64,000 nucleotides of DNA from Marsupella aquatica. Taxonomy: Eukaryota > Plantae > Marchantiophyta. Positions 36,801 through 61,320 of the stretch are shown here, piece after piece; positions within the stretch are counted from its first letter, which is position 1; each line of letters starts with the position of its first letter. The notes under the pieces were generated by a model, which saw only the letters and a program-made list of their open reading frames with translations, did not search any database and was not told the DNA's origin. The position numbers and the translations under genes were made by a program. The stretch spans positions 16,968,170-17,032,169 of the forward strand of contig OZ316895.1 of assembly GCA_973895155.1 (NCBI GenBank). The letters are read 5' to 3'.

Positions 36801-37582
36801 TTGTTATACTAAATACTAAAACTCTGGATAAGGACATCTGTTGACAGAAATCACAAAACAGCCAATTTCCAATTCCAAAAATTGATTGAAGTCACCTGTT
36901 AGTGTTTTTTTCTTCAAAAAAACACCCGCCTCCTTGGATTTCAGTTTCTCAGGGACCTTGGTTGATTTCCAGCCTCGGTAATCCTCTGGACCAAAGCAAC
37001 AACAATACAAGGTTGTGGTCTTCACCAAAGGGCCCATTTTGTACAATCGGTTCTGTACCATGTGTCGAGTTGAGAATTCAGTATGGAAATTGTCTCTCAT
37101 GTTCTCACCCCATATAAAATCTGTAAGCCTACCCTCAGGAATCCAAGCATAATCATTTGTTGATCCAAACCACTCGATATCAGTGTATTCAAATTTTCCA
37201 GGAGGAGGGATCTGAATTCTATCGCATCTGGAGACTGTACAATGGCTTCTGCGTATGGGTGGGCTTTTTGTGGAAGGGAATCCGGCGCAAAATCTCCTTC
37301 CTCCTTGAAATTGAGGTCACGCACATGCTGTGAGATGCCATCGAGCGCATCTGCTACAGGCACCGATGTAGTCACCTGCAATTCATCAACGCCTTTCTCT
37401 GCACTGTGTACTTCCAGAAATTCCTTCCTATTGTCAAATGCTGACATCCTTTGTTGCAAAAAAGCACCTAACATCGGAAGAGGGCCCCCAGGGTGGGGTG
37501 AACTGGGAGCATCGCACATGGCTTGCCAGTAATCAAGTTTAGACATGACACCTGCCAAATCCAAATCCGAGTATCGATGCAC
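33829..37582 (-). pseudogene. MULE DDE transposase with SWIM zinc finger (At4g13970/At1g60560-like), decayed
   Basis: DFIWGE, YCCCFGPED, RGCRCSF..H..CHG..APRIS, AFDATFGTN (D), IIDVADEE (D), FCTWHVRRAW (CxxH), TNGGIERWHHTLK (E), SWIM CTCGYSLQGNACKH. In-frame TAA at 36574-36576; frameshifts near 37110 and 35035. Confidence 0.88.
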
Positions 37583-37799
37583 ATTTGCACGAGGTTACTG
37601 CACGTCACACAATCATACACGAACTCAATGTAAATTGTAGTGAGAAAACAATTCCATTCCTGAGTCTATTGTGCCAGAGAAATGTGCGAGGGCCTTACAT
37701 TCTGTCGATGCAATGATTTAGGGTCCGCTGTAGACTACACACGCGCCCTCGCAATCCCGCTATGGTATTCTCATTTGAAACAGTATTCCAAAATTTGAA

Positions 37800-38129
37800 A
37801 GTGTACACCCTATTTTCCATGTACATACATTGATGGGGTGGATTCGTGATCCTTTGCAAAATGTGTGAAGCGGCCCGCGAGGCAATGCCTTGGCCGGTTC
37901 ACTGCTAAATTGGCCCAAGACGGGGGGCAGGGACTTGGCAGGCGCAGCACTAGGGACAGCCAGGTTTAGGGCGCGGGACAGCAGCTGCAAGGCACCAAAG
38001 TGCTAAGGGACACACTGCCCGAAAACAAGCGCAACTGCCCAAACTACTAATCGGATGTAAAGTGTAAACACTGAGCGTAATCCGTCTAGCATCGAGCATT
38101 AATGTGCATCGATACTGGGAATCGCGGTG
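37800..38129 (-). repeat. MULE right TIR
   Basis: Inverted copy of 17581-17907 plus 29730-29732. Confidence 0.93.
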
Positions 38130-39517
38130 AATTCAATTCAGGTGTCCATGGGCGATGTTTATTGCTCGCAGTACTTAAAGCTCCTCAGAAAACAACAAAA
38201 TGAACTACCTACATTATTATTTGCACTTTTGTTTTTAAGATAGTTTGATCGTTCTCTAGTACATACAATGTATAGCTCCCAATCTGCTGTCATGTACCGC
38301 TGGAGTGTGCCAGGCATAGACTTCATTGCATTTGTGGTGGGGAATCCGAGCCACTACTCTCCCTAACTAATCGTTGAGGTGAAAGGGCGATTGGTCTTTA
38401 TATCTTCCTTTGATGGAGTTTGAATATAGAAAAATGCCCAAAACTTGCATTATCTTTGGATCACTGATATACCAATTGAGGGTTTTGGGATTTCTTTGCA
38501 TATCCTAAAGCATTTTGACAAAATCTGGTTGTGCTAGCAAAGCTCTTGTTCTAGGGTCTGTCTGAATCTTTGCCCACACCTCAGGGCCCTGAAAAATATT
38601 GGCAAATGGCAACCCCTGGCCCTTATAGGCGGTCCTTTGGCTTTGACAGTGGCCGCCTCAGCCCCTTATATTGTCTGCCCTTTGAGCCACTGATCAACTG
38701 AGTTGTTCGGTTGCCTGAGCTCCTGTGTTTGCTGAGTTGTAGTTGGGCAGGACCTGCAAGAGTTGCGATCGAGGAGGAGATAAAGGTAGGGAGAACCATG
38801 CATGTTTTCTTGCCTTCATGATCCATCCCATTTTTTTGTGGCTTCAAATGAGGCTTACTTAGCCATATTAAGTGACGGACATTTATGTTGTTGTCTCTCT
38901 TGCCCGAGTCCCTGTTAGTTGGAGTCATTACATCCCTAGATTTTGTACACCTTGGCCATCCTTTGTTTTTCTTCTTGCTTGTCCTGGATTTTTGCATCTT
39001 GGATCTACCTGCATAATGCAATTTGCAATGTGTCTTTGTAATTTCTGGTCGTTGCTTTGTATGGCACAGTCATTTTGGATTTTGTTTGAACCTGGTATTA
39101 CCTATGCTGGAGGCGTTATCGGGTCTTAGGTCCACTCACAATGATTTTAGACCACACCTGAGCTGTTGGATTGTTTTTCATCTTTGTTGGCGTGGGATTC
39201 ACATACATTATATAACGTTGAATGAATAGACTATCATTTATGTCTGGTCATAGTTCAATTTTTATATTTCCTTATACTTTGCTTATTGTGGACTATTGGG
39301 CAATAGATTCATTTCCTCTACATGAACATTCATCCAATTGGAGGTGAACATGAGGTGAACATTGGAGCTGCAAAGACCTGCAAGGTGAGTTATGACAATG
39401 TTTGTGGTTCAAGGTGAGCTTCATTTTTGGTTTGTTCTTTTGTAGTCCTGAGTTTTCTGTTGTATGTTGTTTAGGGTTGGGTCTGCCTTGGCCTTAAGTA
39501 AATATACAATACACCTG

Positions 39518-39782: not shown

Positions 39783-40249
39783 TTTCCAAGGAAATATACA
39801 ATACACCTGTTTTCCTTTAGTCTATTGTTTTTCTTAGTCTTCTTTTGTCATCCCTGTATCTCTCTATATGTGAACTTTGACAATTCTCATCTCCTTGTCG
39901 AGCTCCCTGTGTATCATTGCCCATTTGTTTTTTGTTTTTTTAATGAGAACTCTGACTTATCCCCTATTGATTGAGAGGACAATTTACTCTTGCTTGTTTC
40001 CATTGCCTTAGGTCCTGAATTTCCTTTGATCCTTCCTATCATTGGATGTTGTGTCATTGGCCACGTATTCCTGTTTGTGTTTCCTGCTCATCACTATTTA
40101 AATCATCATTGCCCAAGTACTTGAAAATTGGACCTGCTTAGAATGCTTGAGGCCATGAACTCCTCAATAGAATAACCCATTAAATCCATACATTTATGTA
40201 AAAACTAGAATTCAGCTGTATTGCATACACTAGAAGAAAACAGGGCCCT

Positions 40250-40615
40250 TTATGACCAATCACCCAATGACAGAGATGAATAAATGACCAAAAGTTTTAA
40301 TGACACAAAAAGAATGACGGGGAATGACTATCCACAATGACCAATAGACTGAAATGACAAAATGTTAATTTTTTTGTCATTTTGTATAATGTCTATAATG
40401 ACTGATGCGACCAAAATGACCCAATTTCCCTAAATGGTCAATTTAGACACATGTCTTAAATGACACAATTAATAACAACAATGATAAATCAGTGTTTAGC
40501 AACATTATAGTCACTCTGGACAATGACTGAAATGACCAAAAATCTATTTGCATCATTTTGGACAACGGTGATAAATGACAAAAAATGTATTATCGTCATT
40601 TTAACCAACGGTGTT
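40250..40615. repeat. CACTA left subterminal repeats (AATGAC/GTCATT)
   Basis: Many copies of the hexamer in both orientations. Confidence 0.85.
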
Positions 40616-41135
40616 AAATGACAAAATTTAGGGTCAATCTGAAAATGAGAATATATCAGTGTTTACAACAACATATTGTCATTATGGACTTATGCCATAA
40701 ATGACTAACTCTAGGGTCAATCTTGAAATTAGGACATATTAGTGTTTACAAGAACATACCGTCATTATGGACTTCTCTCATAAATGACAAAATTTAGGGT
40801 CAATCTGAAAATGAGAATATATCAGTGTTTACAACAACATATTGTCATTATGGACTTCTGCCATAAATGACTAACTCTAGGGTCAATCTTGAAATTAGGA
40901 CATATCAGTGTTTACAAGAACATACCGTCATTATGGACTTTTCTCATAAATGACTAACTCCATAGTCAATCTTGAAATTAGGATATATCGGTGTTTTCAA
41001 CAACATACTATCCTTATGGACTTGTCGCATAAATGACTAAATATAGGGTTAATCTAAAAATCAGGATATATCAATGTTTACAATAACATACAGTCATTAT
41101 GGACTTATTACATAAATGACTACTTATAGAGTCAT
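40616..41135. repeat. 83-bp tandem repeat x6, organised as an A/B 166-bp dimer
   Basis: GGGTCAATCT-like anchors at 40631, 40714, 40797, 40880, 40963 and 41046; alternating variants. Confidence 0.9.
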
Positions 41136-41199
41136 TAAAGAACCCAAGAGATATGAAGATTAAAATACTCAATAGTCATTCCAGACACCTATCATAATT

Positions 41200-44100
41200 G
41201 TAGAGTCATACACCTTTGGAGTGATTTTCCAGAAGTGTCATCATATATAGATGCGCGCATACTATCGTATCCATGGGGCAAATGAAACCTTTTTGTCTCT
41301 CCAAGAAGTAGGGCAATACCAATGGAAGGTTGTCATGCTTTGTTGTAATTGTGTCATGTTTGTGCCGGTGTTTAGACGGGGAATATTTTAATTTGCAAAT
41401 AAATGCATGCATACCATCACATCCAAAGGCAAATAAAAGTTGTTTTTTGGTTCTCCAAGAGGTAGTGCTGCCCCAATGGAATGGGCAGGGGAGTCATGCT
41501 TTTAGGGTATGGTGTGGGTGCAGATTAGGGAAGAGGAATATTCCAACCTTGCAAGGAATCTAAAGCTGGCTCTCTTTGGAGGTACTAGGGCCTTTATTGG
41601 GTCATATGTGAGCAATGGCCCGTCATAAATGCCAATGACTAAAAGTAGGGCCATTAAAATTGTCATATGGAGAGTCATATCAGTCTAATGACTGGATTTG
41701 TGGTCATTTGAGGGGTCCCTTATGTAGTCATTAAGGAAAAGCACAAATGACCATTTTGGGGCTAGGGGCTTGAGGTGGGCCCTAGAGTGCCATGGGCCCC
41801 ACATAGAGGTGAGAACCCCTCCACTGCGTGCGGGACACTATACTCATCATTGTCCAACCACTAGTTGCGACATAAACACTTTGGACACAAGTTTTTGTGT
41901 TTCCTTAAGGCATGATGCACCTTTGGGGAAATCACTCCCAATTCGTACGACTTTGGAGTGATTTGCCAAAAGTGTTGCCATGCATGCACACCATCACATA
42001 CAAAGGCAAATAAAAGTTGTTTTTGGGTTCTCCAAGAGGTGGTGCTGCACCAATGGAATGGGCAGGGGAGTCGTGCTTCTCAGTATGGTGTGGGTGCGGA
42101 TATAGGGAAGAGGAATATTCCAATCTTGCAAGGAATCTAAAGCTGGCTTTAGTTGGAGGTACTAGGGCCTTTATTGGGTCATATGTGAGCAATGGCCCGT
42201 CATAAATATCAATGACTAAAAGCAGGGTCATTAAAACTGTCATATGGAAAGTCATATCAGTCTAATGACTGGATTTGTGGTCATTTGAGGGGTCCCTTAT
42301 GCAGTCATTAAGGAAAAGCACAAATGACCAGTTTGGGGCTAGGGGCTGGAGGTGGGCCCTAGAGTGCCATGTGGCCCCACATAGAGGTGAGAACCCCTCC
42401 ACTGCGTGCGGGACACTATACTCATCATTGTCCAACCACTAGTTGCGACATAAACACTTTGGACACATGTTTTTGGGTTTCCTTAAGGCACGATGCACCT
42501 TTGGGGAAATCACTCCCAAGTCGTACGACTTTGGAGTGATTTGCCAAAAGTGTTGCCATGCATGCACACCATCACATCCAAAGGCAAATAAAAGTTGTTT
42601 TTTGGTTCTCCAAGAGGTGGTGCTGCACCAATGGAATGGGCAGGGGAGTCGTGCTTCCCTGTATGGTGTGGGTGCGGGTTTAGGGAAGAGGAATATTCCA
42701 ACCTTGCAAGGAATCTAAAGCGGGCTCTCTTTGGAGGTACCAGGGCCTTTATTGGGTCATATGTGAGCAATGGACCGTCATAAATATCAATGACTAAAAG
42801 CAGGGTCATTAAAACTGTCATATGGAAAGTCATATCAGTCTAATGACTGGATTTGTGGTCATTTGAGGGGTCCCTTATGCAGTCATTAAGGAAAAGCACA
42901 AATGACCAGTTTGGGGCTAGGGGCTGGAGGTGGGCCCTAGAGTGCCATGTGACCCCACATAGAGGTGAGAACCCCTCCACTGCGTGCGGGACACTATACT
43001 CATCATTGTCCAACCACTAGTTGCGACATAAACACCTTGGACACATGTTTTTGCGTTTACTTAAGGCATGATGCACCTTTGGGGAAATCACTCCCAAGTC
43101 GTATGACTTTGGAGTGATTTGCCAAAAGTGTCACCATGGATGCATACCACTGTTCCAAACGCAAATGAAGCCCTTTTTTGTCTCTCCAAGAGGTAGCGCA
43201 ACACCAATGGAATGGGTGTGGCAGTGGTGCTTCCCTCTATGATGTGTCTGATGTTTAAAGGTATACGATTATTCTATTTTTGCAAGGAATGTAGAGCGGG
43301 CTCTCTCTGGCGGTGCTAGGACCTTCTTTGGGTCATTTTTTAACAAAGTCATGTCATAAGTGTCAATGACCACAAGTAGGGTCATTGAATTGGTCATATG
43401 GGATGTCATATAATTCAAATGACTGGACTTGTTGTCATTTGAGGGGTCTCTAGTGCAGTCATTGAAGATAAGCATGAATGACCAATTTGGAGCTAAGGGC
43501 TGGAGGTGGGCCCTAGAGTGCCATGTGGCACCACATAGAGCTCGCAACCCCTCCACTAGGTGTCAAATACTATAATTACTATTCTCCAACCACTAGTTGC
43601 ACCATTAGCAGTTTGGAGCCATGTTTTTGTGTTTACTTAAGGGATGATATAATCTTGGGGAAATCACTCCCAAGTCGTACGACTTTGGAGTGATTTGCCA
43701 AAAGTGTCACCATTGATGCATACCATCCTATCTAAAGGAAATGAAGCCATTTTTTTTGTCTCTGCAAGAAGTAGTGCAAGGCTGTTGTCCTTCCATGTAA
43801 TTGTGTCATGTTTGTGCCGGTGTTTGGATGGGGAATATTCTATTTTGCAAATGAATAGTGATGGGGCACTCAAGAAGGTAGTGTAATCTTCATTGAGTCA
43901 TTTCTGAAAAAATTGGTGTCATAAATACCAATGATTACAAGTAGGGTCATTAAATCTGTCATATGGGCTGTCACATAAGTCAAATGACTGGATTTGTGGT
44001 CATTTGAGGGGTCCCTTGTGCAATCATTAAGCAGAAGCACAAATGACCAGTTTGGGGCTAGGGGCTGGAGGTGGGCCCTAGAGTGCCATGGGGCCCCACA

Positions 44101-45400
44101 TAGAGGTGAGAACCCCCTCCACTAGGTGCGGGACACTATACTCATCATCGTCCAACCACTAGTTGTGTCATAAACACTTTGGACACATGTTTTTGCATTT
44201 ACTTAAGGCATGATGCACCTTGGGGAAATCACTCCCAAGTCATACAACTTTGGAGTGATTTGCCAAAAGTGTCACCATGGATGCATACCACCGTATCCAA
44301 GCGCAAATGGAGCCATTTTTTGTCTCTCCAAGAAGTAGCGCAACACCAATGGAAGGTTGTCATCTTGTGATGTAATTGTGTCATGTTTGTGCCGGTGTTT
44401 GGATGAGGAATACTCCATTTTGCATATGAATAGTGTCGGGGCATTGTGAGTAGGTGTTGTAATCTTCATTGGGTCATTTTGGAGGAATAGTGTGTCATTA
44501 ATGCCAAAGACTGCAGTAAGGGTCATTTTGGCAGTCCTTTTGGAAGTCATTTGTGCCAAATGACTCCATATGGGGTCATTATAGAGGTCCCTCATGGTGT
44601 CATTACGTACCATCAGAAATGACCCTTTTGGGTCTAGGAGCTTAAGGTGGCCCTAGTGTGCCATGGGGCTCTACATGAAGGTGGCAACCTCTCCACAAGG
44701 TGCGGGGTACTATACCCACCGTACTATTCTCCAACCACTAGTTGCACCATGAGCACTTTGGAGCCATGTTTTTGCAATTACTTAAGGGATGATGCAACCT
44801 TGGGGAAATCACTCCCAAGTCATACAACTTTGGAGTGATTTGCCAAAAGTGTCACCATGCATGCATACCATCCTAAGTCATGCATACAAAAATTGTTTTT
44901 GTCTCTCCAAGAGGTATATAGTGCAATACTAGTGGAAGACTATGTCCTTCTATATAACTATGTCATGTTTGTGCCGATATTTGGATTTTGGATATATTCT
45001 ATTAAATTCCAAAGGAATTGTAAAGGGGCACTCCGAGAGGTAGTATACTCTTCATTGGGTCATTTTCACATAATGTGTGTCATTAATGCCAATGACTACA
45101 ATAAGGGTCATTTTGGTAGTCAGTTAGAGGTCATTTGGAGCAATTGACTGCATATGTGGTCATTAGAGAGGTCCCTCATGGTGTGTCATTAATGGAAACA
45201 CCTCAAATTAGGGTAATCTTGGTTGTCATACTAGAGGTCAGAAGTACCAAATGACTGGAAATGTGGTCTTTACAAAGGCTATTGGGGGGTTCTCTTTGGA
45301 GGTACAAGGGAGTTCATTGGGTCATTTGTGAATTAAATGGTGCTTCAATCTGAGGACTAAACGTGGGGTCACTCACGCTGTCATATTGGAAGCCATTAAT
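41200..45400. repeat. Tandem array of a 565-580 bp unit (about 7 copies), each with a 36-bp palindrome
   Basis: TTGGGGAAATCACTCCCAAGTCGTACGACTTTGGAGTGATTTGCCAA at about 41923, 42501, 43079, 43656, 44220 and 44800, with a partial copy at 41216. Confidence 0.92.
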
Positions 45401-45777
45401 GTTGGCATATTGGAGGTCATATAGTCATGGGAAGGCTCACTTATTAATGCTTTGGTGTAATGCTCTCAAAAACTCTTACACAACATAGCCTCATATGTAG
45501 TGGTCATGTAGCATGTAAGGGACCCAATAATTGTGCTTGAGTCATGAATGAGGGTTTCTCTCAATTGAGTCAGGAGTGGAGAGCTATTAAATGCTAATAT
45601 TTTGGATGAGTATCACTATCATATGGTGAGACAATAAGGTAGTCCAAAATGGTGTTCATGCATGCGGGTTATGGGTTTATATCGCGGGCATATATCGGAC
45701 ATTTTATATCGCTAGCATCATTTTTTATATATAACATTGGTCCTTAACATTCTTGTTGGCACCAACACAAACAGCCA

Positions 45778-45965
45778 TGACCTTATGGGGGGGTCATGAC
45801 ATTATGAGTTATTAACCTTGCCTTCCCTACTTAGGGCCTTATGGGGGCGTCCGGACCTTGTTATTAACCTCTATAGTCGGTATTTCCCTAGGGCCTTATG
45901 GGGGGGGGGGGGTTACATTGTTATTAACCTAGTCTCAACTTCCCTAGGGCCTTATGGGGGGTCCA
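45778..45965. repeat. Short G-rich repeat (CCTTATGGGGG..TTATTAACCT) x4
   Basis: Four copies of CCTTATGGGGG at about 57-bp spacing. Confidence 0.75.
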
Positions 45966-46534
45966 GACATGTGAGAGATATTGTCAGAATATAACCCTAA
46001 TTAATGACCCACAATATCCACCATCCCCATCCAACAGAATACCTTACCTTTACGGGGTTTAGGGGTCCAGCATTAGGTTTTTCCCGCTAAGTGTTCTTGC
46101 GTACCAACAGGAGCCCTTTTTCCTGAAAAAACATCGAGAGGGCAACGCTCGATGTGCTCATTTCTTGGCATACCTTTGTGTGCACATTGCAAGGGCTTAG
46201 GGTTGCGCAGCGTTGTGCTCCATTCCACCAAGCTTCGACACCCTTCGAAGCGTTGGGCGAGGCATTGTTCGGGCAAGCATTGGGTGAGGCATTGTTTGAG
46301 TGAAGCGTTGGACGTGGCATTGTTTTAGTGACCATTTGCAAGGTTTAGAGGAGGAGCTCCGACCCGAAGCCATTCAGGCTACAATTGTTTTTGAGCTTGT
46401 TGCGCGCGGTCGGCGGAGCACCTCGGTAGGACTTGGGAGCTTCTTTGGAGGACCCTGCGCTTTGGAGGACATTCGGGCTTTGGAGTGCCCGATTGCAGGG
46501 TCAAGGCAATAGCTTCTTTACATTTGTCATTGTT

Positions 46535-46745
46535 GCGGGTGAGGAGCGGAGGATGAGCTGCAATCGGCGATAAGCTGCGGGTGAGGAGCGGAGGATGAGC
46601 TGCAATCGGCGATAAGCTGCGGGTGAGGAGCGGAGGACGACCTACAATCGGCGATAAGCTGCGGGCGAGGAGCGGAGGACGACCTACAATCGGCGATAAG
46701 CTGCGGGTGAGGAGCGGAGGACGAGCTACAAATCAGTGACGAGTT
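46535..46745 (+). repeat. 42-bp CpG-rich tandem repeat x5 in the probable CACTA promoter/5' leader
   Basis: GCGGGTGAGGAGCGGAGGATGAGCTGCAATCGGCGATAAGCT at 46535, 46577, 46619, 46661 and 46703. Confidence 0.92.
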
Positions 46746-49094
46746 GCAATCAGCAGCAAGCTACAATCGGCAAGAAGCTGTGGGTGAGGAGTTGCAATCG
46801 GCGAGAACCTACAGGAGGTTCCATCAAGGAGCTGCGAGAACTTATATCTGTGGGAGCGAGTTTGGGCTGAGGTGCGAGAAGGTCAGTTGTGCAATTTTGC
46901 GCTTCTTCCCCTTCTGGCCATTTGTTCATTCTGCATTTTTGCTTTGCTTTTGCCAATGTGCTACCAATGTGCTGTCAGTCCATGAATCCAATGTTGCCTT
47001 CTTGTTCTGTTGCTTAGTGTCTGCTAGTATGCTTATGGCAATGACAGAGAAGCTCCGATTGCTAAGAGACTATTTGCTCTCTCTTTCTCGCTCTCTCTGT
47101 CCCTCTCTCTCTAAGTGCTTGAGTTTTGCACCAGTTTTTGAATGTCTACAATGTTGAGTTCCCTTTGCAGAGAAATGTGAATGCAGTTTTCGAATGTCTA
47201 GAATGTTGAGTTCCCTGACGTGATGCGATGGAGCATCCTGGACGCGCACTGATTGTAGCAGTTGTGCATGTCGTCGGCACTGTCATGGATTGGAGAAGGA
47301 AATCCCATAGAACTAGCCATTGCACTTTCTCGCACAATGCCTGCATTTCCTTCCCTGTACCATGCTAGCTCCACTGCGACCTTCCACTGCTATCTATGTT
47401 GATTCCTTCCACTGCTACAAAATTCTGCTTTGCAATGGCATCCCAATGCTCATATGTCCCAGTAAAATTCGGGTAGACATAAGTATTAGGCGCGGACTCT
47501 TCTCTCTCTGCCTGCCCAAGATCAGGGTTTACTGGTTCTAATTGCTAATTCAGTCCCCATTTAGAAAGACCTAAGAAATTTAACTATCTTCGAGCTTTAT
47601 TGTTTGTTTTGGCAAAATCTTCCCTTGCGGCAAGCAGCTGAGGCCCAGCGTCCACGATGTCCAATACATTTTTCAAGACATAAGTAAGCTGGCTGGGAAA
47701 TGCCTTTCTCCTCAATCTCAAGAGATGATTTTTCGATCTGGAGTCTGCTCACGTATTGCTCTTGCTTGTCCAGAACCTGAACGGCTATTTACCACAACTG
47801 AATCAAGTGCCCGAGTTCTGACCAAGTTGTCCTTTGTCTGTCTGCTGTTGATTTCTGATTGCTACTTGTTGGATTTGTCTGCTATGTTCAGTTCAGTTTG
47901 TTGTCTTGTTGTCGTCTGACAATCTTTGTGGTGCAAGGTGAGCTTGATCTCTTATTATTACAATGTAGTCCTTAGTTTTCCATTGTATGATGTTTTCCTT
48001 AGTTTGTCTATGTTCCTCAATGAATTGGTTTCCTTACTCTTCTTTTGACATCCCTCTGTATCATAGCCCTTTTGTTTTCTCTTTTTTTTACTGAAGAGAA
48101 GTGCAGGCATGTATGGTGAATCCTCACTTGATTCCAGCAGCGACTCTGTAGAATTTTGTCGCCAAAAAGTTTCAGAGTTTCGTGTGTGGTTTGCCAACTG
48201 CTGTGCCACCTCAGAGAATTCCTTAGTGGCTTTTGTACAAGCCTTGCTCTTCAACTATGGTAATTTACAGCTAACTGTCTGATGTTCACACAACATCCAT
48301 ACACAGCAATGAATACAACTCCATGAATACAGCCACATGATTTCCTTTGGTCTGCAAACTGGACGAAACTAAACTAAAATCAGCTTGGTCAATTTTAAAT
48401 TCTTCGTAAGGGTCTCTGACAGCAGCCCGGTATAGTCATTTGTGCACGAAGATAGAGTACGGTGCAGCTTTTGAAAAAGTGGGTGGACCAGCAGCTTGTT
48501 GAGAGTAAAGCAACTTATGGTTCTGTAACAGATGTGTGCAGCAGCTTAAGATGTAGAAGGCACACAATAAAACTTGATTTTTACAGATTTAAAAAAGGGC
48601 AGGGTGAGTGAGCACTGCATGTTGAACTCACAGGTCCGAATCTTGATTTGATTTCGCTGCTAAAATTCGTATCTCTTGCCTGAGTCCCAGTTTGCTGGAG
48701 TTTTGTTGCTCTCTGTGCTTTGTTGTGCACATTGTTGTGTTTGCTCTGTCCATTTTAAAACTTGAGAGCCAAATGAATGCTTTGCTGAAACTCAATTTCT
48801 ATTTGTTCTGTGTTACCCTTACAGATTTTAAAAAGGCAGTGTGAGTGAGCACTGCTGTACAGCAAGCAAAGGCATACAGGTTGCAATATTTGTGATTGCT
48901 TCCAATCATCTAGGCCAAGGTTATTTGCGCTGCTCAATCCTAAATGCTTTGCCATCTATAAAGCATTGGTTTATGTTGCACCCTTGTGGTTACATGTCAT
49001 ATTTTATGCTGCACCCTCATTCTTTTGTGTCATACTGCACCCTGTTATTCCTTCTTGTTTCACAATCTGATGTAGGGTCTGAGTGTGCAGGACC

Positions 49095-49754
49095 ATGGCT
49101 CGCAATAAGCAGAAGGCCATGAATCGTTGCAGAGGTGAATCCTCTCAAGCACCTCAATTGTCCTTATATTCAGACATTGAGATTAACCAGAATAGTCCAC
49201 ATGTATGTGCGATTTGTGATGAGGGAGGGGATCTCATTGTTTGTGATGGGCCTTGCCACCGACATTTCCATAAGAATGTTTCCTGTCCTTTGGGTCAGCA
49301 ATGGCTATGCCCAACTATATCCCTCGCTGATGGCCATGTTGGAGAATGGCTTTGTGTTGATTGCAAGAATGAGGAACATTCTTGCTTTAAGTGCCATGTG
49401 TCTGGAAAAATTGGTGAAGAGGTAAGAAAATGTCCAGACTCTCTCTGTGCCCGGTTTTACTGTCGGCAGTGTTTGGTTCATGGCACAGCATCATGTGGAC
49501 TCCATATTTGTCTTACTTGTGGACAGGGGCCCAATGATGGGGCTAATGGCTTTTTGGTTCAGTGCATGAGGTGTCCTAAGGCATGGCACAAAGACTGCCT
49601 GCTGTTTATCCAGCAGAGGGGATTTGCCCATGATCGAACAATTTGGGATCACTCAGCACATGGGCAGCCCAAGAAGGGGATGTTTTAATGTCCTGACCAT
49701 GACATTGACCCTACACTAGGCACTCTTGCTAGGAGCCACATATCTTGGATTTGA
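49095..49754 (+). pseudogene. EDM2-like triple (composite) PHD-finger protein carried by the CACTA; premature TAA near the C-terminus
   Basis: VCAICDEGGDLIVCDGPCHRHFH..C..WLCVDCKNEEHSCFKC..EVRKC..CARFYC..C..CGLHICLTC..QCMRCPKAWHKDCL..RTIWD..MF*CPDHDIDPTLGTLARSHISW is colinear with the recalled EDM2 PHD region, which ends YCQEHEIDEELLTPVRDH. ATG at 49095 follows a GTGCAG acceptor; no introns. Confidence 0.8.
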
Positions 49755-50351
49755 TTGAGGCTGGATCGAACACAAACTTGAGATAGAGCTTTTTGATGGT
49801 TTCACGTGGACTTAAACAATTTTCAAAGTGCTAAAACATGTGGACTATTTATATGCAGTTTGATGAACTCCTCATGTATACACACTCTACGACAGTGCAT
49901 TGCGGATTGAGGCAATTAATTTTGAGAAATCAACTTTATTATCTTTTCCAGGGTAGGATTCTGATTTTCAAGCATGTACTTTGAGTGTGACTTTCCTCCA
50001 TATTGATGTCTAAACTTCACTTGTAAATTTGTCACTGGTGTCACAAACATTACTTATTCCAGACCTGTCTGCTCACATTCCTAATAGGCAAACAAATACT
50101 GGAAATGATGAAGGCACAGAGATTTACGTTCATAGTATCATTCTGATGACACTGTATGTGATGCTCTATTTGTATGCAAGGAGAAGGTGCCCTACTACAG
50201 TGGATTTGAGAAACTGGGCTCTGTGGGTTTGAGCAATTGGACTGTGGTTGGCATCGGTTGTACAACTGTGACGGTAGGCCCAATTTTGTATGCATGTCAC
50301 TCTGATTCAGTTTGAAAATCATAGTTTGAATACAATTTCAATCAAGCTAGC

Positions 50352-53300
50352 ATGGCACAATTGCCACAGAATACGTTAGGTGTGGGTAGAACTCCAAAGT
50401 TACCGCTCTTCCATCCAGCTAGAGTACAACATCGTGATGATGCTTTGTGGGTTCGAGAACAGAAGGCCTGCCACAAGAGTGGGGACCATAAGATGTACTG
50501 CCCTTGTGTGAACTGCAAAGGGAATTATAGGACTAATCGGAATACTGCTAGACTGCACCTTATTAAACATGGTCGGTACCCTGCATGTCGAGTGTGGGTG
50601 GGAGAGGGACAGGACTCTTCTGATGAAGAGTGGGGTGCTGACTACATGTCACAACATGGCCCTGAGGCATTGAGGGTAGCAAACCTTCAGCAGGCAACCT
50701 GTGCACAACAGCCAACTGTAGATGTTGAAGAACATTTATTTGTAGATGTTCCAGAGTATCCAACTGTGGATGTTCAAGAACATCCAACTATAGATGTCGA
50801 AGAACATATCAGGGCTCTACTGGAAGAAACGTTGCTGAGAACCAGTGAAGAATCCCCTGAGCATGAGCTAGATGATCAGGACCGTTTTGACTTGGATTTT
50901 GTACTTGGGGATGATGAGAGTGAAGGAGGTGCCCATCCTGTAAACCCCCTTGAAACCTCCAAAACTCCTGTGGAGACTGATCCTGCACAGTTATCTTTAG
51001 ATGCAGCAATGCAACCTTTGTTCCCAGGCAGCAAAATAGATGTTGTGTCATTCATGTTGCTTCTGCTGAACATCTGTCATGGCCATGGATTCTCAAACAA
51101 AGGAGTGAATGCATTGTTGTCTTTGATGGGGGAGCATGGTATGCCTACAGAGCATAATCTGCCCAAGAACTTATATGCTGCAAAGCAGCTATTGAGAAAG
51201 CTTGGCTTGGATTATGAGAGAATCCCTGTCTGTGAGAAAGGTTGTATGCTCTTTAGGGGTGAGAATGCCAAGTTAGAAAACTGTTCAGTGTGTCAGCAGC
51301 CCAAGATGAAGAGAGTGGGGAATTCATTACAGGCAAGGAAGGTAGTGCGGTATTTCCCTATAATTCCCAGGTTGAAGAGATTGTATGCCACTGCTGGTAC
51401 ATCTAAACTCATGACTTGGCATCATGAGAATAGAAGCACAGACAACATGGTTCGGCACGCAGCAGATTCAAAGGCTTGGAAGCATGTGGATACAAATATT
51501 GATCGGGAATTTGCAGCTGAACCAAGGAATGTGCGATTTGGGTTGGCACTTGATGGGGTGAATCCCTTTGGGAATAATTCCACAGCTTGGTCTACCTGGC
51601 CAATACTGTTGTTGAATTACAATTTACCTCCTTGGCTTACCACCAAGAAGTTCTTTGTCATGCTAGCTATGCTGATTCCAGGACCTGATTCAGTAATAGA
51701 GGAACAGCTAGACATAATATTGGGCCCATTCTATGAGGAGTTGGAGCTGTTGTGGAAGAAAGGAGTGCCCTGCTTTGACAAATTGCCACGCCCAGGATTG
51801 TCTCAACACTTCAACCTTAGGGCTGTGCTATTGTGGACAATCAATGATTACCCTGCATATGGTTTAATATCTGGACAACAACACTCTGGATACAAAGGAT
51901 GTGTCATCTGTGGGCCAGAATGTGTGGCACGTGGTTCTAAGCACTTGCAGAAATTAGAGTACAGTGGCCACCGTCGATGGTTAGCAGCAAGGCATCTTTT
52001 TCATAGACCAGATAGTGCACAATACTTTGATGGTGCAATTGAGAGTCGACCTGCACCGTGTAGAATGACAAGCTCTGATAGAAAGAAGTGGGGAGACGAG
52101 ACAACAGAATATTTGAAGAAGGGAGGAACCAAGGTTGAGGATGAGAAATGCCCCATAAAGGTGCATGGAGTGAAGAGGGCTACTGGTCTGTACAAGTTGC
52201 CCTATTGGAATGTAAGACTCCATACTACTACAATGAATTTCTGCAATCTCTTCATATGACTTTGAAATATATTCTCTTCATATACTTCCTGTAGCCCAGA
52301 TTTTGTAATTGTTGTATTCAATGCACTAATTTCTAAATTGTGTCCACTGCACAACTACTGCCCAGTGATGCCAAAAGTTGTATTCAATGCCCTAATTTCT
52401 GAATTGTGTGTCCACTGCAGAAACTACTCATTAACCATTGTCTAGATCCCATGCACTGTGAGAAGAATCTTGCACACAACATTGTGCACACTATCATTGG
52501 GACCAAGGACACTCCTTCTGTGAGAGAAGACATGAAGCTCTTACAGGTGCGCCAACACCTATGGCTTGTACCCAATCCAGCTCCCAAGCGTAAGGATGAC
52601 AAATTGTTGATGCCCCCAGCCCCATATTGCCTGAGCAAGAAGGAAAGAACAAGGTTCTTGGAGGTTTTATTGACCTTGAAAGGGCCCACTGGTTTTTCAA
52701 GTTCTTTGGCAAAGTGTGTTACAAAATCCAAGAAACTCTCTGGGTTGAAATCACATGATTTCCACCAACTCATGCAACAGATTCTCCCTCTGGCAACAAT
52801 GGGATTACTTGATGAAGGGGTTCGCTTGGCCATAGCTGGGGTGAGCAATATCTATCGCCAGATCTGTACGAAGGTGTGGGACCCTTCAATGTATGAGAAT
52901 TTGATGATGGATGTTGCATTCACTCTCTGCATTTTGGAAATCCATTTTCCACCAAGCTTCTTTGATGTCATGACCCATTTAATGATTCACCTAGTGGAGG
53001 AATTAGACTTGTGTGGCCCAGTTACAGGCAGATGGATGTACCCAATAGAGAGGAACCTGAAGGTATTGAAGGGTTATGTACGAAACAAGGCACGTCCAGA
53101 GGCTTCTATGGCTGAAGGCTATGTATTAGATGAGTCTTTGGGATTTCTTTCTGAATACATGATTGATGCAAAGGGAGAGGGAAAACGAACCTGGGAGTTG
53201 GAGGAGGATGCTGGCGTTGCAGGCATTGTTTTGGAAGGGGCTGCAAAGGCGATAACTTTGGATTGGTCTGAAATGATGGCCATGCATCATTATATATTAG

Positions 53301-54320
53301 AGAATGAAGAGACAGTGGCTCCATGGTACAGGTACATAAACCCTAGAAACTCTCCTATCCTTAGGCATATGGATCATAATTATGTTGCCCCATTGTGTTT
53401 GTATATTCATGGTGGATCGTGCACTAATGTCTTCAGTGTTGTTGTTGCCATGCAGGATATATGATGCTACCAATGAGACTGTTACCAAACGAAGAGTGGA
53501 TTTCCGGAAGGAGTGGATGAGGAAGCCTGCCAATCGAAGAAAACCAGTGGAATTTCCCGTAGACTGCCAAGAATTGCCACCTTTCAGGGAATGGTTTCAA
53601 ACATTAGTCAATACCCATAATTTTGAGAAAGAGTTTGAGCGGTCATTACTATCTGCATACTCCACACCACCTAGTTTGAAGGCACGACTGTATAGGGCAT
53701 GTAGAGCCTATGGGCACCATTGGAGGACTATTCCATCCTTGGGGTGTTTGAGTGATTGTGATTCTGGTGCTTTCAGCACTTTTGATTCTGGGATGGCTTC
53801 TACATTCACTGAGAAGCGAGTGGACAGGTCTGGTGCAACCATAGAAGAATCTGTACAGTATGTAGGGGCCTTGACAGATATCTTGGTACTGAATTATGGC
53901 AGCTTGAGGAAAGAGGTGATTCTTTTCAAAGGGAAATGGGCAGATCCATCATGGACTCCTAAATCCTCAGCCAGTATGAGGTATACCAAGTCTGGTCTTT
54001 GGCAGGTGAATTTCCATAGAGAACTGGGTGTGTCCAAGAAAATGGATTACGTTTTCCCAAAGCAAGTGGAGCAGGTTTTCTTCCACCCCAATGAGAAGGG
54101 GATAGCATGGAGAACAATCCTCCACAAAGAATCCAGGTCCACAAGGGTGTTAGGTGATTACACAGACGTTGATTTCCATGCTACAATGGAAAACAATGCC
54201 AAATTACACATCGAATTGGCTAAGGCCTGTAGGTCCAGAGAAAATCCAGGACCAAGTACTGGTCCCAAACGAGGCAGAGATGCAGAGGGATCTGCAAGAA
54301 AGGGCAGGCCTAAGCAGTGA
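50352..54320 (+). CDS. CACTA TnpD/Tnp2 transposase (exons 50352-52211, 52421-53331, 53456-54320; 1211 aa), apparently intact
   Basis: CPCVNC (transposase-associated domain), CEKGCMLF..CSVC, YFPIIPRLKRLY, LALDGVNPF (D), TINDYPAYG (D), DPMHCEKN, GLKSHDFH, PPSFFDVMTHL, WMYPIER (E), DUF4216-like VFPKQVEQVFF. Splice phases are consistent. Confidence 0.92.
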
Positions 54321-54418
54321 ATAGGTTTTAGCTAGGTGTGTGAAGTCCATAGATGGACTACATGTATGGACTATTTATGAAATCAGACTAATGGTTTACC
54401 CATTTGTGCAGTTGGTGA

Positions 54419-57400
54419 ATGCAGCCTGTGAAAGGAAGATTGCAAGGGTTGTCACATTCTGTGAATCCTTATGAGGAGGCCCGAAATCGGAACATAGAGC
54501 ATAATGTCAGAATTATGCGTGATCTAGGACTGGGGCCAGACTGCAAGCTGATGTGTGTGTTGATATGTCTATTGCAAATTTGATTCAGTAGATGGAGTTG
54601 TCAGGTTCATGTTCTGTTTTCATATTCCAGATTGGTCTCATACTAGTATGGATCCTGTACATAAGTACTAGTGTTACGGTGTTGTAGATTCATTTTGCAT
54701 GTATGTTTGATCTGCATTGGTGTATGTTGATGATTGCTTTGTTCCTTAGAGGCCCAACCACACATGTACAACGAGAGAGAGGAAAGCCTGCTTTGGTGAA
54801 AGGTACTTCAACTGAAACATTGCCAAAGAGGAGGAGCTCTAGACTATCAGAAGTTACCAAGGTGAACATGGCAGAGTTTGGTGATGATGGCTATGGTTCT
54901 CCTTCTGAGTATGACACTGAGGATTCTGACATTGGAGGGTCAGAACCAGAGAGTGCACAACAGGTAATGCTTGAACTTCATCATCCTAATAGGAAGGGAT
55001 CCTTGTCCCTTTTTCAAATTATATGTTGATATGCTTACGTTGTCCATGATGTAGGTACAGAAACAAAATCGTGGTCCTAAGAAGACTGGGCCTGGTGGAG
55101 GTGGGCTAGTGAGATGTTGGAAAGACCCAGACACTGGACTCTTATATGAAAGTGAGTGGATTGTATTGTTCTACTTTTCAGGTGTGTTTGGAAGTTGATA
55201 TTCTACTTGGAAATGAAATTAATTGAAGTGCTTTGGTGTTGTGTGTTTGTTTAGTGGTTCCATCAGCATCTGAAGGCAGATCAGGTCAATCTGATGTACT
55301 ACATTCCAGAGGATCTTCAGGTAATACACAATCTGCTCGTCATGCATATGCAAGTACATTTGCTCAACTTTTCAATCATGTACATATTTTTTGATTGAAT
55401 GCATGTGTGTGCATTGCAGGAGGGGCCTCTGAGATGCGCAGGGAACGAAGGCATGCTAAGAAGCAGTTTGATAATACTGCCAAACAACGAAGGGATTGCG
55501 GAGAGGTGCCCAAACACATTAAAGTGAGTATTGTACTTGTTTGTAGATTTAGACAAATCTGATCCTCTCTGTTGTTGTGTGTATAAAACTTGGACTCTGC
55601 ATAAATTCCAGAGTTATGATCTGACATTGTCTGTGAAATGCAGATTTATGACAATGATATTGATGATTCTGATGGCAACAAACAATACTGGCTGGAGGAA
55701 CTTCGTGGCAACGTACTCAGAGTCTTTGATGTATCAAAGCCAAAATGGACTGATCATCCACAAGTTCATACAACCACAGTGTGGAATAACATGGCAGCTG
55801 AGTGGGAGTATGTGGGTGGGGAATTTATTAACACCAAATTCCAGAGTCATTGTCGTGGCATATTGAAGAGAGAGCGCCATAAAATGCATGTTTATTGGAA
55901 GAAAGTTTGCAATGAGGATCCAACCAAACCTGGGTCATCTGGTGTTGATCCAAAGAAATGGGCAGCTTTGGTATCTCATTTTACCAGTCCAGCATTGATA
56001 TCTTTGAGTAAACATATGACTGATAAAAGAGCACGAGTGCAAGATACCTCTCACTTTGGAAGGGGAGGGCATGCTGCAGCAGCAAAGAGAATGGTAAATT
56101 GTCTATCATTTTCACTATCAATTCTGTCTTGTTTGTGAATCTTGATGAAAACAAACTCTGTGATTTCTCATTCATTGTGTGTTTGAACAGAAGCAGAAGA
56201 GAGGATCAAGCCCAGGTATATCTGACCTAAAAGAAAACCATGGTAGTCAGGGTTCATTGCCAAAGGTGACAATGAGCCCATCATTGGCAAGTGCAGAAGG
56301 TCAGACTGGTAGTTTTGTGGGAGCAAAGGTGAGCCCATCATTGGCAAGTGGGGAGGGTAAAAGTGCTAGCTTACTGGGGCAAGGAAACAGACATGGATCA
56401 GCTGTGAGTATTGTCATACCAATTTGATTTGTACATCATTCTCCATTTGACAGAGCCAGTGTTGTGTCGTTTGTAAGTTTGACAGTGAGACTGTTGTGTT
56501 GGTTTGTGGTTCATTTACAGACCCCACATTCAAAAGAAGAGATCACTGCCATTGGGGCTGTGAAATTGGATGTCGCTGAGTTGAAAGGCACTGTGAGGGA
56601 GTTGACAAACATGATGACTACGTGGATGGCACATCACCCCAATAATGCACAAGTTCCAACAGTTGTGCCTAGTCACAGTAAGTTGACTACAACTACCAAA
56701 CAAGGTAGTAGAAAGCGATCTCTTACTTTTTCAGGCGATAATGAAGGTAAAATTCTCTATCATGTATACACTGTCCATTCAATGTAATTATTGTGATGTG
56801 TATATGTCATTGCATGTTTATAATATTCTTGCATGTTTTTAGTGTGATTATATGTTGCTGGTGTATACATGTTTGTTTATGCATTTCTTTTGTGTGTGTT
56901 TTATGACAGCATCTTTAGGGGAGCCTCCTGTGTCGCAGGGAAGACCAACTGACACAGCTAACAGTACTCTAAAGCAAACTGAATTGGAAGTGAACCTTTT
57001 GCCATCTAAGTTGCCCAAAGAAGCCATTTCAGATGCCTTTCAGTTGCCAGAGGATAAGTCGACTCAGTTGACACCAGATGTAACCCCAGAATCATCTGAG
57101 TTGCCAAAAGAAACTCCCATTCCAAGTGAACAGGATGACACTCCATCAACTAGAAAGGGAAAGAAGAAAAGGAAGAAAGGATCCTCAGCAAATGCATCAC
57201 CTGCACAGAAGAAACCAATGCAGTCTCCTAACCCCGTTGCAAAGGTAAATGTGTGTTTGATTTGAGTGTTCTTCTATCTTTCAATTTCTGTTTATTGCAT
57301 TTTTAACAAAATGTGTTGTTCACAGTTTGCAAGAGGAGATTTGGTGAAGATGAAGAGCGTTGTGGACAATTCCATGATAGTGGCAGAAGGTGAGGTGACA

Positions 57401-57586
57401 GGGCTGCCAGGAGAAGATAAGTTTCATTGTGCAGATTTTGAAAGCCCTTTCTTGCGAGTGCGTGTGATTGAAGTGTTTGTAGATGTGGCATTGCCATTTG
57501 CCAATTCAGGGGAGAACCAGTCTAAATTATCTGATGTGAAAGGGATGAATGCCCTATGGAACTCTAGATTGCTTAAGAAGCAATAG
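54419..57586 (+). CDS. CACTA TnpA-like protein (multi-exon; exon structure approximate)
   Basis: First exon MQPVKGRL..YEEARNRNIEHNVRIMRDLGL. Ptta/Transposase_24-like exon (W..LVSHF..S..M..KR..H.GRGG). Coiled-coil exon. Last exon VAEGEV..FHC..RVRV..VALP..LWN (TNP1-like). Confidence 0.75.
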
Positions 57587-57934
57587 AAATAGCACTCTAT
57601 CAAGAAACAATAGACATGATACAATGACAACTCTGTTTTTCTATAAACATGCAGAGTGATTGGTATGTCAGGTTGTAACAATTGACAATCTAATATTATT
57701 GATGTCAATGTAATTTTGTTTCATAAATTTGCATTGAGTTCAATATTTACCGTGAGACTTATGAAGGTATCTTGTATGAATATCAATTGGATTTGTGATA
57801 TATATCGAATGTTTCTTTAAGTTTTCATTTAGCAACTCTATTGAATGGCTTTGTAATGTATGATTTTTGATTGACATCAAGTTTTATCTATCATGATCAC
57901 TTAAATTTGAATTTCTCCAAATCATTGAATACTT

Positions 57935-58660
57935 CGTCTGAATGACTGGCTTGAATGACTGGCTTGAATGACTAAATGACTGGCTAGAATGACTGATGTA
58001 ATGGTCATTATTCACAACTATCTTTGTGACCAATATGACTCAACTCTGGTCATTAAAGACATAGACTAAATGATTCAAAGAATGACATATACAATGACCT
58101 TTCTCATGGTCATTATAAACAAGTCCACTATGACTCACTTTATGTCATTCAAGACATGTCATTAATGACTAATGTGTATCTTTACGTGTCTTCTCCCAAT
58201 TGAACCACGTGTCTCAATATGACTTGTTTATACTATAGTCATTTTGGACACGTCCAAAATGACCCAAATATATTGCCAAATGGTGAATCCTCTTTGAACC
58301 ACGTGTCACTATTTGATTTGTTATATAATGTACGTCATTTTGGACAAGTCCAAAATGACCAATGTTATTTGTTTTTTTATTGCCATGTGTCGTTGTGTGA
58401 TTGGGTACGGGGACCATCGACGGTCAACGGCAATTGACCGTCGATGGTGATTTGTGTCGTCATGTTGGACCGTTCAACATTTATGACCATATCATAAAAA
58501 TGGTCATTTAGGATAGTATGAAATGACCACATGTTTTTAGCGTCATTTGTCCAAAAGGACCGTGACCAAAATGTCCGTTGTGACGTGTCTGGAAAGACGA
58601 GAACAATTGCGTCATTGTTTTGTTAAAAAGACCTGATTAATAGTCATTGTTTCGGTCATA
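57935..58660. repeat. CACTA right subterminal repeats (AATGAC/GTCATT), including a perfect 15-bp-stem hairpin at 58413-58448
   Basis: TGAATGACTGGCT tandem copies at 57939-57995, many GTCATT/AATGAC motifs, and ACCATCGACGGTCAA-cggcaa-TTGACCGTCGATGGT. Confidence 0.85.
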
Positions 58661-61320
58661 AAATACATTGTTTTCTACTAGTGATATTTACTTCTCCTAA
58701 AACTTGTAATGATTTTAATGCCATGTCAAGATGTCTTAAAATGTATAGGCAGATTAGGTCAATGTGGTGTACTATGTACATTCCAGGTGTCTAGATGTCT
58801 TCAAATCTATGTATACTCTATGTATAGTGAGTGTTGTATCTAGCCATGTGTGCATGACGTAGTGATTGGGAAGTGGTATTTTAGGTTGGTCGTTGTTGGT
58901 GAGGCGATTGGAGATCCTGCTCACCTTGCTAATCAGAGGACGTGAACAAAGGACATCACAACAAAAGCAACACTTATGGTGAGGCAGACTGGTTGCGCAG
59001 CCTTGAGTAACTATGTCAGATGTGGGATCCTTCCATCCTAGTCTGCATGGTACTTACAGTACCCTATTGTTGCTAGGAATAACTACAGCCGGCCTCTACT
59101 TGTTTCGATACCCTTCCCAACATCCTATGTATTTGTGTCTCTCGAACACAACCCGCAATAAATTGAAGCAAGTACAATGCTTGCAGATACTGAAATTATG
59201 TTGTAGGGAAATCCAACTGTAGAATATGTTTTGTGTCATTGAAGATTAGTGTGCGTGGTATAGAGAAACACTTTGTGAAACTCTGCATTCTGATGTTAAC
59301 ATGATGAATGGTGCACACTAGTGAGGTTCTTGGATACACAAAAGAACATGAATGGAATGTGCGTATGAGTGTTATATATTGGTGCACACTAGTGAGGTCA
59401 TTTTTAGTTGTATAAGGGGGTCTTCATTACTCATTCCAAGTTGAGATGAATGACTTATACAAACCCCACAAAGTATTTCTCTTAGACATTGAGGTGATCT
59501 TTGGTTTCTACGGAACCAAAGATTTTTAGCCACTTAATGTGAGGGGGTACTCTGGTTGGCTATTAGGTGTTGTCACCTTTCTTGTAGTTTTATTGTCACT
59601 CGAGGTGCTGATTTAGATTAGTTAGGTGTAGTATGTTTGCCCATCATGGGTTTGATGGATTTTGGACCCAAGCTCTGTTTAGTTTGGTTACTCATTGGGC
59701 ATTTAGTGATGTGTTGGTCTGGACTGGGTGTGAAGGCATGAGAATCCTTCCATCTTGTTTGAATTGGTTGCTAGACCCTGTGGCTTTAAATGCTCGTTGA
59801 ATTTGTATAGTTGGGACTTTCACGTCCTCAGACTCAAAGCCGTATATTAGTTTTTGCATTTTTAATGTGATAGATCCAAGAGATTTGTTTGCTCTCGTTC
59901 TGGTAGTTATTTGGTCTTTTGACTCTGGCCTCCTTGTTGGAGTTGACCTTTTGTGGTCTTGTTCTGTTTGCGCCCCCTTGCTGTGGGGTTTTGCGCCTTT
60001 ATCTTGTCCTTTATCAATCATATTAAAAACCCTTTCAAGGAAGGTCCCATAACCATGCCTGGTCAATACTGGGAAATGTGATTCAACACAAACATAAGAG
60101 CATCATAAGAGTAGACTTAAGGGAATATCTTTATTTAAACATGAACCATGTCATTCATACCAAGAAATCAGAGATCATCTAGAGACACAATCATACATTC
60201 AAGTAGATGTAGTAGATGATGTAGGGTAAATCTGGACTAACGTATATCCCATAGGGGTAGGTAGAGTTAAGGTCCAACCATATTACATAATGACACTTTG
60301 AATCATCCAAACTTTACAATTGAATCCTGGGTAGATGATACACTAGGATGAGTATACTAACAATGCAAGCAAAAATAAATAATTTTGGTCATATCATGAA
60401 TTTTTTTCTTGATATCCTCCCAAACATAGTTTTTCCAATATTCACTTGTTGGGGCCGATTACCTGTAACTAGGGTCATTTTTAAGGGTTTTTTTATTTGC
60501 CAAGGTGGAAAATTTCCCAAGAAGGAGAAGATGCTATGAACAATCCCTTATCTAATTCGACTAGATTTATTTATTGCCATTAGATATCCCTAGATTTAAG
60601 GATAACCATCAGGTGATGATATCTCTAGGTGGAAATTGGCGAAGCCAAGCCAAAAATCCGTGAGTATTTTAGGCAAGTAACTTTTGTAATTTGCCACCGA
60701 ATATGTTGATGACAATGTCACATTTTGTTTTGTATTTACAAATATGTCCTGGTTTTGTATATGGACAACAAATTCACCAACATAACCAAGGAAACCATAG
60801 AATATGAAAGTGCGAATCTTTGAAAATACAATAAAACAGTGCAAGAGTTATGAATCTGAACAGCTGTAGTGGCTATAAAACACTGGGAGAGTTGTGAATT
60901 TGTACCCCTTGGTGGCAATGTATTTAAAAGCTCTTTAAGCAAATCTAGGGTTCTCTAAGCAAACTATGCACAACCATGCCTCTCAGGGTTTTCGTAATTA
61001 AAGAGCAATGTATTTAAAAGCTCTTTAAAGCAAAACCAGCTCACTTGAGTTGAGACTTATAGGTCTAGAGAGCACAACCCTTGGTCCCTTCTGTGGGGTT
61101 TCACAGATTTCACTTTAAAACATTAAGAAAAAAAACCTGTTGAGGCAAAAGTGGTGAAAACCTGGGTGGAATTGGGCAAATTTTTGTTACTAAAAAAATG
61201 GTCATGCAATCTTAGAGTACGCCCCACAATCCCCTCAAGGGAATGGGTCACCTTACCCCATTACTGGAAGGTGCTGACAGAAGATTAGGCCCTTTCATTC
61301 ACTCATGCCACCTTATCATT

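Follow-up and report, generated by a model that had tools for sequence, protein, structure and literature searches.

The window, a stretch of 64,000 nucleotides, contains a complete CACTA (En/Spm) transposon that carries an intronless gene for a protein with PHD fingers, in addition to its transposase gene and a putative TnpA-like gene. The element has the features by which CACTA transposons are recognized: terminal inverted repeats (TIRs) that begin with CACTA, a 3-bp target-site duplication (TSD), a TnpD-type transposase, and subterminal repeats. These are listed below with their positions in the window.

40225..40227, no strand: target-site duplication ATA, 3 bp, with its partner at 58684-58686 (sequence on both sides of the element)
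40228..58683, plus strand: complete CACTA (En/Spm) element, 18,456 bp (TIRs, TSD, and Transposase_21/DUF4218/DUF4216)
40228..40242, plus strand: 5' TIR, 15 bp, beginning CACTA; pairs with the 3' TIR at 14 of 15 bases
40243..45600, no strand: long 5' subterminal repeat region with tandem units of 83 bp and ~577 bp, and 16-26 ATGAC/GTCAT words per kb
50355..54320, plus strand: TnpD-like transposase, 1,210 aa, in three predicted exons (50355-52211, 52421-53331, 53456-54320)
54750..57586, plus strand: putative multi-exon TnpA-like gene, assigned by position and open frames
57950..58668, no strand: 3' subterminal repeat region, with 24 ATGAC/GTCAT words within 58001-59000
58669..58683, minus strand: 3' TIR, 15 bp

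The transposase frame is open, with no internal stop once the two GT-AG introns are removed (1,210 codons), and it matched Transposase_21 (E = 6.5e-65), DUF4218 (8.7e-36) and DUF4216 (3.5e-05) in Pfam. There was no meaningful Pfam match in the three frames tested from the TnpA-like region. The ~577-bp unit is present in 6-8 copies at 41400-45300, at the 5' end of the element, and the subterminal array is unusually long. A short motif is duplicated at 48571-48625 and 48813-48862; in the first copy, an AG acceptor and a GT donor flank about 17 nt, a possible leader micro-exon of the element.

The rest of the window has features of its own. A pair of 339-nt inverted repeats (95%; 17569-17907 and 37803-38141) encloses about 20.5 kb, and minus-strand frames at 35032-37594, which had no Pfam match, presumably encode a Mutator-type transposase, going by their motifs. 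A pair of 42-nt inverted repeats bounds a nested element at 17899-29734, in which long plus-strand frames (18865-22436; no Pfam match) face minus-strand frames (26243-29106; weak RING match), a layout that resembles a convergent DNA transposon with two genes. A second CACTA transposase, decayed, lies on the minus strand at 62010-63927, with Transposase_21 and DUF4216 matches in broken frames. There is also a multi-exon host gene on the minus strand at 5600-12700, with fragments that had no Pfam match, which we take to be a PB1/TPR gene (PHOX/CLMP1-like).

An intronless gene for three PHD fingers

The PHD gene and its parts are all on the plus strand.

49040..49075, plus strand: pyrimidine tract and AG, the predicted splice acceptor of the PHD gene (sequence motif)
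49095..49754, plus strand: intronless accessory gene, 219 codons when read through, with an in-frame TAA in the window copy (ORF, Pfam)
49095..49127, plus strand: histone H3 tail-like N-terminus, M-A-R-x-K; 5 of 10 residues identical to H3 1-10 (7 of 10 in relative P0002)
49206..49364, plus strand: PHD finger 1, C38-C90
49383..49505, plus strand: PHD finger 2, C97-H137, with a family-specific His-to-Cys ligand swap and without the ~20-aa EDM2 insert
49509..49700, plus strand: PHD finger 3, C139-H202, with the last ligand pair 3' of the stop
49686..49688, plus strand: premature TAA; TAC (Tyr) in the contigs of 4 of 4 runs, and Tyr in 120 of 120 EDM2-like proteins
49701..49751, plus strand: EDM2-type C-terminal extension, TPxRxH; P211 is changed to L in the window copy

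The ORF starts with the ATG at 49095, in the context GGACCATGG, and runs for 197 codons to the TAA at 49686-49688, followed by 21 codons and a TGA at 49752-49754. Between its end and the transposase ATG (50355) lie 600 bp, and the whole ORF is enclosed by the TIR- and TSD-bounded element. An earlier reading of the window made from its letters (the sequence-only reading) had described an intronless ORF of about 220 codons upstream of TnpD, preceded by its own splice acceptor. The ORF was borne out, inside a complete CACTA, and the predicted acceptor corresponds to the pyrimidine tract and AG ending at 49075. That reading had also proposed three atypical PHD fingers, in agreement with the NSD-type families found by Pfam (PHD_NSD and PHDvar_NSD above their cut-offs, PHD-1st_NSD and PHD below cut-off) and with the complete set of 24 predicted zinc ligands in three fingers. 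The ligands are those of EDM2 at 23 of the 24 positions; the other is the His-to-Cys change common to the family. Finally, it had described a C-terminal CxxH tail after the TAA. The sequence is present there, but a separate tail was ruled out: C199/H202 is the final predicted ligand pair of finger 3, and is invariant in 120 of 120 EDM2-like proteins. Because the TAA precedes this pair, finger 3 of the window copy should be broken. There was no evident DNA-binding, RNA-binding or transposase-binding domain in the PHD protein.

Maintenance of the gene in a CACTA family

The TAA is a defect of the window copy. We compared the locus with public runs X1, X2, X3 and X5, which are filed under three organism labels. 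Base 49688 is C in 701/701 (X1), 107,517/107,940 (X2), 18,890/18,890 (X3) and 35/35 (X5) depth units, giving the TAC that the sequence-only reading had anticipated as TAY. All 30 bins of 45500-58800 are covered by contigs of these four runs, and a single X1 contig spans 48992-50192; we infer linkage of the PHD gene to the transposase in the run organisms from this continuous cover rather than from one contig. One contig of run X7, and none of run X8, fell on the PHD ORF. Besides the stop, the window copy has two more private missense changes in the PHD ORF. Its transposase has private missense changes at 3 of 9 listed sites, as expected after insertion.

Relatives of the PHD protein, which are Logan or JGI proteins where we looked them up, form a deep family. 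A word-based search gave three intact relatives among 11 candidates (81, 70 and 52% identical; 213-225 aa), and 510 proteins reached E ≤ 0.001 in a profile search. Among the best 150 of the 510, the top five are 166-245 aa long and 11 have the family pattern before finger 1, all of them 93-245 aa. In a tree of 37 rows, eight short relatives of nearly full length group together as a clade (100/100) on a long branch; they are 36-84% identical to one another and 26-38% identical to six host-type EDM2-like proteins. An alignment of 71 proteins has 38 invariant columns. Eight relatives end early or run into unrelated sequence, and the early ends of several are what decaying transposon copies would have. 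The evidence for a transposon context comes from the close family rather than from the relatives at 36-70% identity. The strongest single-stretch long matches that bear names are liverwort and lycophyte proteins, and a tree that joins the family to the short EDM2-like proteins of liverworts was neither supported nor rejected (AU p of 0.43, with long-branched outgroup rows). Metagenome scans gave no relative of the PHD gene and one distant 3-kb transposase locus that had no PHD match; a viral scan gave only one weak single-finger match.

The sequence-only reading was to be dropped if the ORF were present in this copy only, or were nearly identical to host EDM2. Neither was found: the ORF is in all four runs and in the 36-84% identical relatives, and identity to the host proteins retrieved is 26-38%. 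That the short relatives are one clade and are so distant from any host EDM2-like protein retrieved argues against recent passive capture.

There are 23 variant sites in the PHD ORF among the family contigs, and no indel listed at ≥5%. Taken singly, 12 of these sites are synonymous, or 13 if a codon with two changes is read jointly, compared with a neutral expectation of 21-29%. The excess at 13/23 has p = 0.0002-0.004 and corresponds to a rough dN/dS of 0.2-0.3, in line with the dN/dS below 1 expected in the sequence-only reading; the dN/dS is crude, and the 23 sites should not be counted as independent events. With the six window-private changes removed, 10 of 17 sites are synonymous (p = 0.0007-0.009). 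CpG depletion values of the PHD ORF (0.23) and the transposase (0.22), compared with 0.64 in the host gene region, fit long residence of the ORF in a methylated element.

The best reading of these results is that the PHD ORF represents a third, selectively maintained gene of the CACTA family. We consider it very unlikely that the ORF is passive Pack-CACTA cargo undergoing decay and that its intact distant relatives are host genes. Passive cargo would explain the stop and the two further private missense changes in the window copy, the eight relatives that are cut short or turn unrelated, and the existence of PHD-only EDM2 derivatives outside the family (see below). It is difficult to reconcile with the synonymous excess that persists at 10/17, with TAC in all four runs, and with an intronless ORF on a long branch that keeps all its ligands; private missense changes are also found in the window-copy transposase. 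Anti-silencing factors of the VANC and TnpA type belong to autonomous transposons and are maintained by selection, two features that the PHD gene shares.

An EDM2-like module behind a histone H3-like N-terminus

The PHD protein scored 57-86 bits against 120 seed-plant EDM2-like proteins, a set biased towards EDM2 because it was retrieved by a profile with one EDM2 row, and 43 bits against NSD3, the best sequence match among solved structures. The match to NSD3 ends short of the EDM2-type extension, which is common to EDM2 and the PHD protein. The sequence-only reading had placed EDM2 closest and NSD-type PHDs next, and both placements held. EDM2-like proteins (Arabidopsis EDM2; Marchantia MPTK1_1g03210 and MPTK1_2g00350; Selaginella EDM2) share with the CACTA protein the three atypical PHDs, 23 of 24 ligands and TPxRxH. 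In contrast to EDM2, the CACTA protein is ~220 aa long, is encoded by an intronless gene in a transposon, and is without the DNMT1-RFD and methyltransferase-like (ELP) domains; it has the His-to-Cys swap and a ~20-aa deletion in finger 2, has lost an acidic patch, and is only 26-38% identical. By homology, it is a related module and not a member of the EDM2 family.

The loss of the acidic patch is seen just before finger 1. There are two Asp or Glu in 12 residues, compared with a median of six in 119 EDM2-like proteins, and the residue three before the first Cys is Pro where EDM2-like proteins have Asp or Glu; the liverwort short EDM2-like proteins have Pro there as well. Acidic residues ahead of the PHD finger of AIRE hold H3K4, and both AIRE and BHC80 read unmethylated H3K4 (PMC2685098). 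Given its sequence, the CACTA protein should not be assumed to have the H3K9me2 specificity of EDM2.

An AlphaFold model made from four sequences had a pLDDT of 34 and one made from 71 sequences had a mean pLDDT of 70. Because residues 1-46 have pLDDT <50, the latter is silent on the H3-like tail. Its best fold matches are NSD PHD-C5HCH tandems (top Z of 6.8 in a wide search, below the caution level of 8); for single fingers, the top PDB matches are AIRE, CHD4, TRIM24/33 and PHF21A. PDB searches found no solved structure of the EDM2 PHD module. The PHD cassettes of NSD1/2/3 have the same Pfam families as the CACTA protein and are its top fold and sequence matches among solved structures. NSD PHD-C5HCH tandems can bind non-histone partners.

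One possible role, in line with the read-through and decoy ideas of the sequence-only reading, is imitation of EDM2, in which the CACTA protein would bind H3K9me2 and recruit or block ASI1-AIPP1, changing polyadenylation and read-through of the long transcript of the element. EDM2 binds to H3K9me2 and, within intronic heterochromatin, suppresses polyadenylation at proximal sites (PMC7529245, PMC5364540), H3K9 methylation persists on active Spm (bioRxiv 10.64898/2026.08.24.746577), and the homology extends over the entire EDM2 PHD module. Because the acidic patch and the other EDM2 domains are lost, H3K9me2 binding and EDM2-like read-through are weakened as explanations. The finger-2 insert is also gone, identity to host EDM2-like proteins is low, and there is no RNA-binding domain. 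We consider EDM2 imitation distinctly unlikely.

The sequence-only reading had the transposon taking the reader module alone. This was not the case, in that the protein begins with a motif that resembles the N-terminal tail of H3. The first residues of the window protein are M-A-R-N-K-Q-K-A, which we compared with H3 1-10 as printed in PMC2685098, and its M-A-R-N-K fits the definition of iM-Z-R-x-K H3 N-terminal mimics, with a small Z; such mimics number 48 among 20,996 human proteins (PMC8166343). Among the 16 family proteins that retain the N-terminal region, M-[AT]-R-x-K is at the first Met in seven, and in eight if one second Met is counted; [ATS]-R-x-K is present somewhere before finger 1 in 11. 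In controls, M-[AT]-R-x-K was found in 3 of 271 other proteins collected, all three of them short PHD-only EDM2 derivatives, and in 5 of 2,424 Met-started frames of the window, this ORF included. Shuffles within the tail reached the observed identity to H3 at frequencies of 0.0015 (window copy) and 0.00004 (P0002). These values apply to a motif that was spotted post hoc in family members that are related. A PDB search with the 28-residue tail gave no matches.

Some of this resemblance may have been inherited, because non-seed host EDM2-like proteins already begin M-A-R; the CACTA protein adds K4 to this start. The non-seed proteins (P0155 and P0158 among them) begin M-A-R-T/V, unlike seed-plant EDM2. 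There is also a short liverwort EDM2-like paralog that stops just past the PHD module (P0153, P0154 and P0156, from Marchantia, Calypogeia and Riccia). Outside the CACTA PHD family, we found PHD-only EDM2 derivatives of 287-386 aa (P0220, P0228 and P0253; also P0200, P0171 and P0254), so standing alone does not by itself make the CACTA protein unique. In this group, three begin M-A-R-x-K and keep the His ligand, which suggests that three PHD-only derivatives may have reached the layout of an H3 mimic joined to EDM2 PHDs independently.

The basic N-terminus could be a nuclear localization signal. If that were its only role, the gene would be functional and the zinc fingers would be a protein scaffold that reads no histone. 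The N-termini are K/R-rich and variable, and 8 of the 16 family proteins, as called, have no such motif at a Met; position 3 varies, and Thr6 of H3 is never kept. The lost acidic patch and the fold matches to NSD tandems are also consistent with a scaffold. However, the motif comes directly after the Met with the spacing of R2 and K4 kept, next to a linker that cannot be aligned, and the shuffled tails seldom reached the same identity to H3. We rank an import signal with a scaffold below EDM2 imitation, as an improbable account of the protein.

Proposed function and comparison with known systems

We propose that the PHD gene encodes a chromatin adaptor in two parts, acting against silencing, and give this proposal, made from sequence, a little less than an even chance. 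The gene would have been captured long ago from a plant EDM2-like gene, and its product would be expressed as a separately spliced transcript from the promoter of the element. Removal of the first Met would expose a free Ala, as in H3. The EDM2-derived triple PHD module is predicted to dock on nucleosomes, and the H3 tail mimic would serve as bait for host readers or writers of H3K4. Tethering to the element, for example through the TnpA-like protein, would keep the effect local. Activating machinery would then be recruited, or repressive readers of unmethylated K4 titrated, which would allow transcription of the transposase genes within heterochromatin. A further possibility is a switch in which the tail folds back into finger 1. 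The broken window copy would rely on intact sister copies. More tentatively, and with confidence clearly short of even, we suggest that this CACTA lineage fused an H3-tail decoy to an EDM2 reader module and so plants a fake H3K4 tail on its own silenced chromatin, hijacking the readers and writers of the host.

There is precedent for expression in marked chromatin. Arabidopsis Spm that has been activated by TnpA keeps its H3K9 methylation (bioRxiv 10.64898/2026.08.24.746577), and because of this, Spm-type elements can be said to be transcribed in marked chromatin. There are also counterpoints to an adaptor, including the lost acidic patch and the NSD-like fold matches. In addition, a reader with no DNA specificity would act globally, which would be costly for a transposon, as argued in PMC10398659.

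By analogy with RAG2L, the PHD protein might instead be a transposition cofactor that guides the transposase to or from a type of chromatin, thereby selecting target sites. The PHD gene is separate, lies directly upstream of the transposase and is conserved with it, and the RAG2L protein of RAGL has a C-terminal PHD, which in sea urchin binds methylated H3K4 (PMC7204232). On the other hand, the protein has no evident domain for binding the transposase, the H3-like tail would be superfluous, and the requirements described for En/Spm transposition are TnpD and TnpA (bioRxiv 10.64898/2026.08.24.746577). We regard a cofactor of this kind as unlikely, although less so than EDM2 imitation.

PHD fingers in transposons are known generally; what appears to be new, in a search that covered CACTA cargo rather than histone mimicry, is the EDM2 origin and the H3-like tail. 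The literature searched described no CACTA with EDM2-like or PHD cargo. The term 'PHD' is absent from the main texts of a survey of 962 Spm proteins (bioRxiv 10.64898/2026.08.24.746577), a 2026 review of gene capture (PMC13317346), an atlas of transposon products (PMC13547354), and PMC6719617; the supplements of these papers could list it.

If the adaptor is a conserved effector, the combination of an EDM2 reader module and an H3-tail mimic would be a histone-level route, unlike that of the DNA-targeted VANC and TnpA, and would bear on how Spm-type elements that still carry H3K9 methylation are transcribed. With a fake H3K4 tail as effector, transposons would have a new way of countering silencing, akin to the histone mimicry of viral proteins. 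The protein, at ~220 aa, also offers a natural means of testing histone mimicry in plants and of dissecting the EDM2 PHD module.

The known systems each resemble part of this arrangement. The H3 tail mimics of PMC8166343 have the same sequence definition and are human proteins; the CACTA tail, known from sequence, is carried by a transposon and joined to a PHD module in the same protein. RAG2L is likewise the second gene of a DDE transposon and has a PHD finger. However, its kelch propeller partners the transposase, its one PHD has another pattern, and it belongs to a different superfamily; the excerpted text of PMC7204232 describes no H3-like tail. Pack-CACTA gene fragments (PMC13317346) also place host-derived coding sequence between CACTA ends, whereas the PHD element retains an open transposase and carries an old gene that has no introns and evolves under purifying selection. 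VANC of VANDAL (PMC10398659) and TnpA of Spm (bioRxiv 10.64898/2026.08.24.746577) are, like the PHD gene, accessory genes of autonomous plant DNA transposons with non-coding regions rich in tandem repeats. Both, as described there, are sequence-specific and DNA-targeted, whereas the CACTA PHD protein has a host-derived histone-reader fold and no evident DNA-binding domain, and its element has a putative TnpA as well.
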